A DNA stretch of 64,000 bases from an uncultured Desulfospira sp. (GTDB lineage: Bacteria > Desulfobacterota > Desulfobacteria > Desulfobacterales > Desulfobacteraceae). This document shows, piece after piece, positions 1-2,694 of this stretch. Positions within the stretch are counted from its first letter, which is position 1. Every line of letters begins with the position of its first letter. The notes under the pieces are model-generated. The model was not told the DNA's origin, searched no databases, and was given only the letters and a program-made list of their open reading frames with translations. The translations under genes were made by a program, and so were the position numbers. The stretch is from assembly GCA_963663165.1 (NCBI GenBank), contig OY760175.1, forward strand, positions 736,001-800,000, written 5' to 3'.

Positions 1-433
1 GTTTAAGTTGGCCGGGCAGGGTCTTAAGCAAGGTGGACGGAAACCATAAAATATTGACCGTCTGCCAGGGGCCTGAAGCCGTTACAATCAGAATCAGGGC
101 CCAGATTCCCCCGGCAATGGAGCCGTAAAGGAACAGGTTGACCACACCGGAAACGCCCAAAAAACTGCCTGAAGCCGCCAGCAGTTTCACATCTCCGCCG
201 CCGGCATACCGCAGCAGAAAGGGGATCATCAGCAATAATAACCCGGTTCCCATTCCTTTAAACGCGTACAGGCAGCCCCATTCCAGACCGCTGGTTGCGG
301 CATGGTATCCCAAGCCTGCCAGACAGGCCGGAACAGTCAAATAATTGGGAATCCGCCGGAATCTTAAATCAAAGACAGCGGATATCCCGAATAAGAGGCT
401 GCACATCAAAATGGCCGGCATCGGTTGCATCAT
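1..433 (-). CDS. cpaA: A24-family prepilin peptidase (CpaA/TadV-like), 3' end runs off the window
   Basis: Not in the ORF track; translated by hand from ATG at 433: MMQPMPAILMCSLLFGISAVFDLRFRRIPNYL...RYAGGGDVKLLAASG. It has both catalytic-Asp motifs (D-L-R-x-R-R-I-P-N and GGGDVKL) and lies directly downstream of an Flp pilin. Confidence 0.88.
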   Translation of the reverse strand, partial: MMQPMPAILMCSLLFGISAVFDLRFRRIPNYLTVPACLAGLGYHAATSGLEWGCLYAFKGMGTGLLLLMIPFLLRYAGGGDVKLLAASGSFLGVSGVVNLFLYGSIAGGIWALILIVTASGPWQTVNILWFPSTLLKTLPGQLK

Positions 434-462
434 TTGGCTTTCGTATCCCCCCGCACAGAAGG

Positions 463-651
463 CTATGGTTCCTCGGTGGTGTCTTCCCCGTTCAGGCCGT
501 CAACGATTTCCTGGAATTTGTCATTAATGGTCTCTCCTAAGGTTGAGACAACCGTAACAATAGCCAGGGCAATGCCGGCGGCCATTAATGCATATTCCAC
601 TGCTGATATCCCTGAATCATCTTTCCATAACTCTTTTAATCTTTGAATCAT
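463..651 (-). CDS. flp: Flp/Fap type IVb (Tad) pilin
   Basis: 62 aa, short charged leader, G|ISAVEYAL processing/Flp motif, then a hydrophobic helix; AAGGAG RBS upstream. Confidence 0.93.
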   Translation of the reverse strand: MIQRLKELWKDDSGISAVEYALMAAGIALAIVTVVSTLGETINDKFQEIVDGLNGEDTTEEP

Positions 652-782
652 GATGCTCCTTTGGTGTTCTGTCGGCTTCTTTTACCGGGTCTTTCCCTTG
701 GGGCCCGCCCTAGTAACGGTCTCTTTACAGCCCTGAAAATAAAGGCCTGCTGGCGGTTAAGTTCAGGGGCTTGGGATGGGCC

Positions 783-823
783 AAAAAAAAATCCCAGACC
801 AAAATACTGCTTTGATCTGGGAT
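783..823 (-). terminator. Intrinsic terminator in the flp leader (riboswitch expression platform)
   Basis: Minus strand ATCCCAGATCAAAG-CAGTA-TTTTGGTCTGGGAT (14-bp stem with G-U pairs) followed by 8 T; lies between the riboswitch and the flp start. Confidence 0.85.
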
Positions 824-889
824 GTCCCCTTTTTATCCGCAAATTCTTTATGTGACCTGTATCCTATGAAGCCGCAAGAATACATTGTC

Positions 890-1082
890 TGATCAAACGG
901 GCAGGTCTTCTGACTTCCCTCCCTTCATGCGGCCTTCCCATCCCAAGATTCTGGTGGAACAGTGGCACAATAAATTGCTGAAGAGTTCCTGTTAAAATAA
1001 CAGGCAAGGGTCACAGCAGCGGGCCTGTCTTCGATTTTCACGAAGTTCCCTATTAAGCTTAATTTGCAAGCACCCATTCGGC
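890..1082 (-). ncRNA. Cobalamin (AdoCbl, class I-type) riboswitch
   Basis: Minus strand reads CGAATGGGTGC...TTAATAGGGAACTTCGTGAAAATCGAAGACAGGCCCGCTGCTGTGA...GCCACTG...GGGAAGGC...AAGTCAGAAGACCTGCCCGTTTG. All hallmark motifs, including the 3' B12 box, are in order, and P1 pairs CGAAUGGGU/GCCCGUUUG. Confidence 0.93.
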
Positions 1083-1085
1083 TGC

Positions 1086-1114
1086 AATGAACCAAAAATC
1101 TTCAAAAAAGTCAA
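1086..1114 (-). promoter_or_regulatory. Putative sigma70 promoter of the riboswitch-flp transcript
   Basis: TTGACT-17 bp-TTCATT with an extended TG; predicted +1 falls near the 5' end of riboswitch P1. The -10 is weak. Confidence 0.5.
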
Positions 1115-1221: not shown

Positions 1222-2289
1222 TTATTTAACCGGGGGGTTGATGTCGAATTCGCTCATTTTGTAGAGCAGGGTTTTGTAGCTGATCTTTAGAATTTTGGCG
1301 GCCTTGGAGCGGTTCCAGCCCACCTTGTCCAAAACAAAGACAATGACTTCCTTTTCTACCCGGTTGGCGGCCATTTTTTTGATTTTTTTAAGGGAGATGT
1401 CCTGGAACAGTTTTTCAGAACTGGTGGACAAATCAACGAACTGGGAGATGATGGTTACCGATTCAGTGCTGAATTCTCCGGTATCGGTATCCGACTTTTT
1501 GCCCTTGTTTGGTTTTACAACATTTTTCGGGACTTCTGTACCGTCCTTGGGAAGCTCATTGAATATCTTCTCCCAGGAGTTCATCACCATCTGCTTTTTA
1601 ATGCAGTTTTGAAGCTGGCGTACATTTCCCGGCCAGGAATACCGGCACAGTTTTTCCATAATGTCTGTATCTGGTTTGGCCCCGTTGTTTTCAGGGTATT
1701 CAGATTTAAATTTCCGGTAATAGTACTCAACCAGGGCAGGGATGTCTTCTTTGCGTTCCCGTAACGGGGGGATGTCGATTTTGATAATGTTCAGCCGGTA
1801 AAAAAGATCTTCCCGGAATTGCTTTTGTTTGATCCGCTCTTCAAGGTTATGGTTGGTGGCGGCAATGACCCATACATCGGTTTTAAACTCCTGGTCTGAT
1901 CCGAGGGGGGAGAATTCACCGCTTTGCAGGACATGGAGCATTTTGGACTGAAGGGCTATGGGCATGTCCCCGATTTCATCCAGGAAAAGCACGCCTTTGT
2001 TGGCGGTCTGAAATTTGCCGGGCCGTTTTCTGTGGGCACCGGTAAATGCCCCCCTTTCGTATCCGTACAATTCACTTTCAAGAAGGGTTTCCGGCAGGGC
2101 CGCACAATTTATTTTCACAAAATTGCGGGAAGATCTGGTGGACTCGGCGTACAGGTTTTGGGCGACCACCTCCTTGCCGACACCGGTTTCACCGGTGATG
2201 AGGACGTTAAGGCAGGTGTGCGCCACATGGTTGATCAATTCCTTGATCTTTAACATTGATTGACTTACGCCGATTAGAGGTGTGCTCAT
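1222..2289 (-). CDS. Sigma-54-dependent transcriptional activator (AAA+ and Fis HTH, no N-terminal sensor)
   Basis: GETGVGKE Walker A, GAFTGA loop, LFLDEIG, FREDLFYRL, WPGNVRQL, C-terminal WNRSKAAKILKISYKTL HTH. Confidence 0.93.
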   Translation of the reverse strand: MSTPLIGVSQSMLKIKELINHVAHTCLNVLITGETGVGKEVVAQNLYAESTRSSRNFVKINCAALPETLLESELYGYERGAFTGAHRKRPGKFQTANKGVLFLDEIGDMPIALQSKMLHVLQSGEFSPLGSDQEFKTDVWVIAATNHNLEERIKQKQFREDLFYRLNIIKIDIPPLRERKEDIPALVEYYYRKFKSEYPENNGAKPDTDIMEKLCRYSWPGNVRQLQNCIKKQMVMNSWEKIFNELPKDGTEVPKNVVKPNKGKKSDTDTGEFSTESVTIISQFVDLSTSSEKLFQDISLKKIKKMAANRVEKEVIVFVLDKVGWNRSKAAKILKISYKTLLYKMSEFDINPPVK

Positions 2290-2310
2290 AAGTATTAACG
2301 TCTTTTTTGT

Positions 2311-2694
2311 CTACTTCTTTTCCTTGTTTAACAGCTTGGCAACTTTTTCTTCGATGTCAAACAAATCTATAGGCTTAAACAATACCAAGTCAGCTTCCGC
2401 TTCAGAGGCAAGGGCACCGGGGTGGTCTCCATAACCGGTCATGGCAATAATTTTAATTCCCGGGCATTCTTTTTTTGCAATGGAAATAAGACCGACCCCG
2501 CTGATATTCGGCATAACCAGATCCGTTATCAGGCAATGAAATACTTTGGGTTTCTCCTTTAAAATTTTTAATGCGGCAAGACCGTCAATGGCAGTTTTGA
2601 CTTCGTACCCCATTGAATTGAAAAATTCGTAAAAGGTAGACAGGATGTCTTCGTTGTCATCAACTATCAAAAGTCGCAGAGGATTTTCCGGCAT
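2311..2694 (-). CDS. Stand-alone response regulator receiver protein
   Basis: LIVDD, ITDLVMP (phospho-Asp), AMTG, FKP; 127 aa with no output domain. Confidence 0.9.
   Translation of the reverse strand: MPENPLRLLIVDDNEDILSTFYEFFNSMGYEVKTAIDGLAALKILKEKPKVFHCLITDLVMPNISGVGLISIAKKECPGIKIIAMTGYGDHPGALASEAEADLVLFKPIDLFDIEEKVAKLLNKEKK

Follow-up and report, generated by a model that had tools for sequence, protein, structure and literature searches.

A cobalamin riboswitch leads an intact tad operon

We analysed a 64-kb window, the whole stretch of 64,000 nucleotides, from the uncultured Desulfospira genome G000 (G000:736001-800000). Its first kilobase carries, on the minus strand, a regulatory leader, the flp gene and the 5′ part of cpaA (Table 1). 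The pilin and A24 prepilin peptidase genes that the original prediction had read from the sequence were both recognized by Pfam; the full cpaA gene spans genome positions 735927-736433, and Flp is 98% identical in G113, a genome of the same genus. The aptamer, predicted to be complete, matched RF00174 along the full model (positions 1-189) with 84.6 bits (E 2.1e-19; gathering score 31.5), and this was the sole Rfam match within the window.

The promoter is the weakest item of the leader. Of the weak sigma-70 promoter predicted earlier, the -35 hexamer TTGACT is present and also kept in G113, but the -10 element has only 3 of 6 matches and a consensus scan gave no call. The predicted intrinsic terminator, in contrast to this, held up as a 14-pair hairpin with a U run and a predicted energy of -18.0 kcal/mol. 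Since a scan of the region found no more terminators than its shuffles contained (4 versus a mean of 4.2), the support for this one comes from its position and from the fact that all 12 related same-strand leaders likewise have a hairpin and U run.

In the predicted structure the P13 hairpin and the terminator hairpin do not overlap. The loop of P13 (875-872) is complementary to L5 (1022-1019), from which we infer that the two are kissing-loop partners. A candidate antiterminator lies between P13 and the terminator, where 838-835 may pair with 823-820, the base of the terminator; a similar element is found in related leaders. The Priestia megaterium metE-type repressing riboswitch, as presented in the accessible text of PMC10653944, has the same L5-L13 complementarity and a P13 apart from the downstream terminator, whereas its antiterminator uses the 3′ side of P13. 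The same portion of that source takes a P13 compatible with the terminator as the criterion of a repressing corrinoid riboswitch. By this criterion the leader has a repressing layout, and it is very probable, judging from the sequence, that B12 represses flp-tad expression. Leaders of similar layout precede btuF, cobI and TonB-receptor genes in G000.

Only overlapping ORFs of 40-70 aa lie between the aptamer and flp. The segment 652-782 diverges between G000 and G113, whereas the leader itself is nearly identical. Just past the terminator, 11 bases (770-780, minus strand) are the exact complement of a part of the aptamer (937-947, minus strand), and 10 of them are kept in G113; this pairing could lock read-through transcripts in an aptamer-disrupted fold. 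Upstream of the leader (1222-2694, minus strand) are genes for a sigma-54 activator and a single-domain response regulator; the former is kept in G113 but absent beside the other loci of the secretin clade described below.

Table 1. Features of the flp leader and of the tad island (window positions unless marked as genome)
Feature	Position	Strand	Basis or remark
Candidate -35 hexamer TTGACT, leader promoter	1109..1114	-	read in sequence; weak
Cobalamin riboswitch aptamer RF00174	883..1092	-	Rfam match
P13 hairpin	858..884	-	predicted
Candidate antiterminator	820..838	-	read from leader sequences; weak helix, proposed
Intrinsic terminator (attenuator)	783..823	-	14-pair hairpin 823-791, U run 790-783
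flp ribosome-binding site	656..660	-	read in sequence; identical in G113
flp, major pilin, 62 aa	463..651	-	PF04964, E 3.7e-16
cpaA/tadV, prepilin peptidase (5′ part)	1..433	-	PF01478, E 2.5e-16
Operon past the window edge	genome 735927 down to 724274		tadE x2, cpaB x2, N-domain protein, rcpA, tadZABCD, small lipoprotein
After the tad operon, in order			riboswitch-AraC1, propeller-dockerin, cohesin-like PEP-CTERM, membrane protein, tadG, riboswitch-AraC2
Converging operon	to genome 711037		riboswitch-btuF/cbiZ-btuF-btuC-btuD-cbiK

The adjoining DNA, to which the original prediction had pointed for further tad genes, holds a complete operon downstream of flp-cpaA. Its 14 genes are intact, with intergenic gaps of -8 to 104 nt, and Pfam found Flp, A24 peptidase, RcpC/CpaB, RcpA, TadZ and TadA-TadD in one gene run. 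The minor pilins are encoded by two PF07811 genes (tadE) and, 4.7 kb further on, by a PF13400 gene (tadG). The full set flp, cpaA, tadE, cpaB, rcpA, tadZABCD and tadG is that of Tad/Flp (type IVc) pili. Unlike known Tad systems, however, this subclade encodes a pair of CpaB proteins with two RcpC domains apiece, as well as a distinct secretin-N-like protein (the N-domain protein of Table 1). Genes resembling type II secretion pseudopilins were seen just upstream of the tad locus in L013, L014, L015, L018 and L035.

Together with the genes that follow, the operon forms a 26-kb island that contains 4 of at least 8 RF00174 matches in G000 (best 150 of 571 candidates scored). AraC1 and AraC2 are cNMP-binding AraC regulators (PF12833 and PF00027), each behind its own riboswitch. 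The propeller-dockerin protein (505 aa) ends in a TSP3 and dockerin tail, and its cohesin-like neighbour (207 aa) in a VPLPA/PEP-CTERM-type tail. By reading of translations, the other G000 riboswitches precede a cbi/cob operon, two TonB receptors with a CobN-like gene, a ThiC-like/CobT-like pair and an unrelated-looking operon. One long riboswitch (G000:4458103-4458388, L010; 71.2 bits) has an unusual target, an anthranilate-phosphoribosyltransferase-like gene and a long dehydrogenase-like gene. G000 has 17 B12-binding domains above the Pfam cut-off. In a comparison of G000 with G113, identity is 79-98% for the tad core and 31% for TadG, and the cargo genes differ; in G113 a DUF4465 gene (E 3.1e-51) adjoins tadG.

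The riboswitch link is a property of one secretin clade

We collected RcpA relatives by a family search (28 of 161 genomes) and by a search of genome contigs (best 80 of 282), the latter with a query made from 11 close relatives in which many riboswitches had already been seen. After removal of 8 duplicates and 3 short rows, the tree held 89 rows and placed the window locus in a clade of 33 (SH-aLRT 94, quick method). Seven of these were short of upstream DNA, leaving 26 scorable loci, and in 19 of them a cobalamin riboswitch lies within 1.2 kb of flp (11 of 16 when only rows outside the query alignment are counted). Rfam confirmed 18 of the 19; the one in L032 was found by nhmmer only. Thirteen face flp, eight directly ahead of it and five ahead of an AraC gene that precedes it, while six point away, four to AraC and two to polysaccharide genes. 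Among the seven clade loci without a near riboswitch, an RF00174 match precedes the AraC orthologue in five, either close by or in another place; in one of the other two the AraC gene lies at the contig end, and the last (L067) is broken.

Outside the clade, none of 39 rows with at least 1.5 kb of upstream DNA had a cobalamin riboswitch near the first tad gene; counted over the whole locus, one occurs in 1 of 56 rows. Rfam gave none in 7 outgroup loci and nhmmer none in 11 more. The riboswitch link is thus a property of one secretin clade. In one outgroup Tad locus (L062:4288-4898) two c-di-GMP-I-GGC aptamers stand ahead of the flp gene.

The pairing, which the original prediction had asked to be sought in other genomes, recurs in many families, and the proposal that the riboswitch here is an orphan beside a decayed tad locus fails. 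The link is kept in three layouts: directly, via a co-transcribed AraC gene, or via a divergent or distant AraC gene and a box at flp. It is very improbable that the linkage is incidental, whether through an orphan riboswitch or through tad genes hitch-hiking in a B12 island. Such an origin would suit the broken L067, whose genome has no AraC match for the query used, but it sits badly with the conserved link and with the intact operon here.

A probable AraC relay to dispersed PEP-CTERM genes

Searching 22 upstream regions for motifs, we obtained a direct repeat with a 21-nt period (information 15.0 versus 10.5-10.8 in three shuffles). This tandem box resembles E. coli AraC half-sites. We trained a matrix on 10 flp promoters of other genomes and ran it over both strands of G000. 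The top four sites (30.2-33.5 bits) are all intergenic and all ahead of dispersed PEP-CTERM genes: one for a DUF4465 protein, one for a BtuH-like protein, an operon for a BtuH-like dockerin protein and a cohesin-like anchor, and one more PEP-CTERM gene. The next three (20.3-21.4 bits) likewise lie at PEP-CTERM promoters. Ten column-shuffled matrices gave best sites of 16.7-22.1 bits and never reached 30. The box marks only a subset of the tail-pattern ORFs of G000 (6 of 78), and no box of at least 17 bits was found in L062-L110. From family membership and linkage, the cNMP-AraC protein is very likely the activator that binds the box.

The flp leader of the window has no box (best 1.7 bits); here flp stands behind the riboswitch itself. 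At the G000 dockerin promoter the box is below threshold, and a variant repeat is shared with the G113 propeller promoter. The flp promoters of L035, L037 and L051 share a different conserved repeat upstream of flp. Both repeats are possibly sites of AraC paralogues. Weaker boxes (L143-L149; G000 2568025 and 3650799) were seen ahead of a glycerophosphodiesterase-like gene and a PEP-CTERM gene, named by reading of translations; the latter is seemingly split into two frames and lies beside a cobalt/nickel-transporter-like operon.

Candidate cobamide binders and a possible cohesin-dockerin pair

The DUF4465 protein of G000 matches PF14717 (E 2.2e-55) and six solved DUF4465-type chains (best 9HMU, E 2.4e-23), and the solved DUF4465 proteins bind B12 according to the accessible part of PMC13398666. 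The link to BtuH is weak and transitive: one family member matches 7BIZ, the B12-binding domain of BtuH2 (E 0.0096), and 8BLW_B (E 0.33). The same member and the G000 protein give a 29% alignment when the tail is counted. No 7BIZ-type PDB match came from one more single query or from three profiles of this family, and the Atlas gave only unnamed clusters. In L154-L168, BtuH-like proteins encoded in TonB-receptor operons often have a GGCF-type tail, compared with the VPxP tail in Tad-clade genomes. In L183 (G548) several more riboswitch-like elements (nhmmer only), spread over 17 kb, separate successive BtuH-like, DUF4465, propeller, dockerin and cohesin-like genes.

The 505-aa protein was modelled as a β-propeller (pLDDT 86.5) whose best matches are generic, six-bladed-type enzymes, and no BtuG entry was among the matches listed, an outcome that is still compatible with a BtuG-like function. 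Its dockerin (PF00404) scores above the cut-off (E 8.8e-7). The profile of the anchor family has two cellulosomal cohesins as its two best PDB matches, both weak (E 0.009 and 0.012), and the Pfam cohesin model found none in 11 of 11 family members. Thus, as in cellulosomal cohesin-dockerin pairs (PDB 2Y3N, 1TYJ), a dockerin here may meet a cohesin-like partner. Unlike in cellulosomes, the host is Gram-negative, a single cohesin-like domain sits on a PEP-CTERM/VPLPA tail, and no carbohydrate-active domain was seen in these proteins.

We sampled 401 genomes of the order, in 11 of which an RcpA of the clade type was found (>400 bits; next 380). The TSP3-dockerin family (E 1e-25; three candidates scored per genome) occurs in 10 of these 11, six as long matches and four by the tail only, and in 0 of the 390 others (kin not independent); this tail also appears on proteins whose N-terminal domains are unrelated. 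These results, together with the joint swap of TadG and the cargo cassette between G000 and G113, could be explained if the Tad machinery were a type II-like secretion system for TSP3-dockerin-tailed proteins. The exported proteins would dock on the cohesin-like PEP-CTERM anchors and form a cellulosome-like B12-capture layer that feeds TonB receptors, a role for which the cohesin matches of the anchor also speak. However, four further GspE/PilB-type ATPases are encoded in G000, and most of its 20 dockerin matches lie outside the B12 regulon, so another exporter exists in this genome. PEP-CTERM binders are also found in 30 genomes without the clade, and the co-occurrence with dockerins may partly reflect co-transfer of the island. 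We consider such an export role unlikely. The narrower idea that DUF4465 proteins need Tad for export was discarded, as 30 of the 34 genomes with DUF4465 lack the clade. A genome-wide survey of G000 gave 78 ORFs with a PEP/VPxP-type tail pattern and two strong and one weak exosortase matches; a second dockerin/PEP cluster (6103500-6116000) has no riboswitch.

Second-messenger aptamers and polysaccharide genes

Six binder leaders (L151, L175, L177, L179, L181, L182) contain a second cobalamin riboswitch followed by a c-di-GMP-I or c-di-GMP-I-GGC aptamer; the one in L151 lies behind the AraC gene. A c-di-GMP-I-GGC aptamer alone was seen in L042/L174 and L061. Its pairing with cobalamin aptamers may give a clue to what the GGC variant does. 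The riboswitch next to flp is directed at gmd or at polysaccharide export genes of the XrtA type in L050 and L051. Across L050:5415-7225, L051:3520-7563 and L061:4217-6737, the exopolysaccharide genes faced by riboswitches are gmd and genes for XrtA/PEP-CTERM export, outer-membrane and chain-length proteins.

These leaders, and the polysaccharide genes faced in L050 and L051, would fit a role of the pilus in attachment, an established function of Tad pili. B12 scarcity would then elicit an adhesive pilus, exopolysaccharide and PEP-CTERM proteins, and the cells would clump together or adhere to partners or particles rich in cobamide, with the binders lodged in the matrix and import proceeding via TonB receptors. 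An adhesin-type β-solenoid at the TadG tip and the persistence of riboswitch-led TonB receptors, both described below, are in line with this. Attachment leaves unexplained, however, the strict tie to dockerin-tailed proteins and the missing binder-linked receptor in all four clade genomes with DUF4465, and G000, having a cbi/cob operon, shows no obvious dependence on partners. We regard it as a rather doubtful explanation.

TonB receptors and the TadG tip

We examined DUF4465 loci in 20 of the 30 genomes that have this gene without the Tad clade. A TonB receptor gene adjoins DUF4465 in 18 of these loci and is fused to it in a 19th; most lie behind a riboswitch, with btuFCD and a BtuH-like gene. 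The core family of these receptors occurs in 32 of the 401 genomes and in none of the 11 with the clade, and the best full-length matches in G000 are at 21-25%. Within the 34 DUF4465 genomes it is found in 0 of 4 with the clade versus 26 of 30 without (p 0.0015, with kin not independent). Depending on the genome, the same binders thus accompany either a TonB receptor or the Tad clade, which favours a function of the pilus in retrieval or import of cobamide.

Other counts speak against an exclusion of the two. The broader receptor family is not depleted in the clade (3 of 11 versus 101 of 390; p 1.0, again with kin not independent), and of 25 further clade genomes two have the core and three the broader family. 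G000 keeps its riboswitch-led pair of TonB receptors; in 9 of 10 family genomes of the clade a riboswitch lies directly ahead of some TonB-receptor match (by comparison of coordinates), and in L052 a riboswitch-led receptor stands right before the tad operon. The idea that Tad replaces all B12 TonB receptors is thus unsupported.

TadG was modelled as a pilin followed by a β-solenoid (pLDDT 84.3), with a variable C-terminal domain. Its best fold matches are DUF3494 ice-binding β-solenoids (Z 13.6, rmsd 3.0, 189 residues), its lead in the Atlas was DUF7305 (0.86-0.90), and no B12-binding protein was among the fold matches listed, which is still compatible with cobamide binding. Over its whole length the model resembles ComZ (PDB 6QVI), the tip pilin of Thermus thermophilus DNA uptake, which also combines a pilin with a β-solenoid; the match is loose (Z 11.2, rmsd 8.3, 304 residues). 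Unlike TadG, ComZ belongs to a type IVa competence system and binds DNA. The likeness of the TadG tip to an uptake pilin favours retrieval, while the closer match to ice-binding β-solenoids tells against it. Comparison of the TadG tree with cargo type was too weakly resolved to address co-evolution of the two.

Discussion

The above results suggest that the secretin clade probably has a role in cobamide acquisition or scavenging. For the pilus itself we tentatively favour retrieval or import of cobamide, with a probability of about 0.38. When cobamide is scarce, the attenuator would let RNA polymerase read into the tad operon, and the sister riboswitches would release BtuFCD-CbiZ-CbiK and the cNMP-AraC activator. 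AraC would turn on the dispersed DUF4465/BtuJ-family and weakly BtuH-like PEP-CTERM proteins, the dockerin-tailed β-propellers and the cohesin-like anchors. The Tad pilus would be the moving part of this scavenging apparatus: its ComZ-like TadG tip would retrieve cobamide from the surface binders, and retraction would bring it up to the outer membrane, or across it, for BtuF. The pilus would thereby fill the place that a TonB receptor takes in the same binder module of relatives.

Retrieval is further supported by the intactness of the RF00174-led operon, which shares its island with btuFCD and three more riboswitches, by the clade-wide riboswitch linkage and by the box, which ranks four PEP-CTERM promoters first, one of them that of a DUF4465 gene. 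Tad-dependent DNA uptake is reportedly already in print, and we count it on the same side. Against retrieval stand the persisting riboswitch-led TonB receptors with their undepleted broader family and the 2 of 25 further clade genomes with the core family, the six-bladed-type propeller with its generic matches (BtuG is seven-bladed), and the 6 of 19 riboswitches that point away from flp. We also found no precedent for import of a vitamin by a pilus. The most specific form of the proposal appears unlikely as a whole: a type IVc pilus as a TonB-independent vitamin importer, in which BtuJ/BtuH-like proteins and cohesin-docked propellers would collect cobamides and pass them to the TadG tip, retraction would carry them through the RcpA secretin to BtuF-CbiZ for import and remodelling, and a riboswitch-to-AraC cascade would also read c-di-GMP.

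The original prediction of a B12-scavenging pilus is partly supported by the complete operon, the recurrent pairing, the B12 uptake genes and the homologues of B12 binders, although its expression when corrinoid is scarce is deduced from the leader. It did not include the probable relay from riboswitch to AraC, the regulon of dispersed PEP-CTERM genes or the candidate cohesin-dockerin proteins.

Tad pili, including the Myxococcus Kil system, a tip-customised Tad apparatus according to the available portion of PMC12075869, have a TadG with a variable C-terminal domain, as here. Unlike known Tad systems, the present one is predicted to be under cobalamin-riboswitch and AraC control and is linked to dockerin, cohesin-like and B12-binder genes. 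With the Bacteroides thetaiotaomicron relay BtuJ-BtuH-BtuG-BtuB-BtuFCD, as outlined in the accessible sections of PMC13616437 and PMC13398666, it shares riboswitch control, a DUF4465 binder, a weak BtuH link, a surface propeller and BtuFCD. In contrast to that relay, judged from the same sections, the binders here are PEP-CTERM or dockerin-tailed proteins and not lipoproteins, a Tad operon accompanies the binder module in place of a TonB receptor, and a probable AraC relay extends the regulon. Moreover, BtuG is a seven-bladed propeller lipoprotein bound to BtuB, whereas the propeller here is of the six-bladed type and dockerin-tailed, with no adjacent receptor gene.

In the literature searched we found no description of a cobalamin riboswitch with a Tad/Flp pilus, although supplements such as riboswitch census tables could list such genes. 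Likewise, we found none of DUF4465 with PEP-CTERM and B12, of PEP-CTERM, dockerin or cohesin with Tad, of a B12 riboswitch with AraC in Desulfobacter, of type IV pili in B12 uptake, or of Tad with cobalamin in sulfate-reducing bacteria. The accessible text of a paper on delta-proteobacterial regulons (PMC545781) contains no pilus or pilin terms. The conserved, intact association of this Tad pilus clade with probable cobamide scavenging is thus apparently undescribed.

A riboswitch that controls a transcription factor can reach unlinked genes, which regulon surveys based on riboswitches only would miss. The regulon described here offers candidate functions for a subset of PEP-CTERM proteins and for Gram-negative cohesin-dockerin pairs. 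Adhesion, motility, secretion and DNA uptake are the known roles of type IV filaments, and the passage of B12 across the outer membrane is ascribed to TonB and BtuB; pilus-driven vitamin import, if true, would be categorically new. Cobamide sharing shapes anaerobic sediment communities, and a Tad clade wired to cobalamin riboswitches across families of sulfate reducers is a concrete and testable case of a pilus that may act in micronutrient capture.
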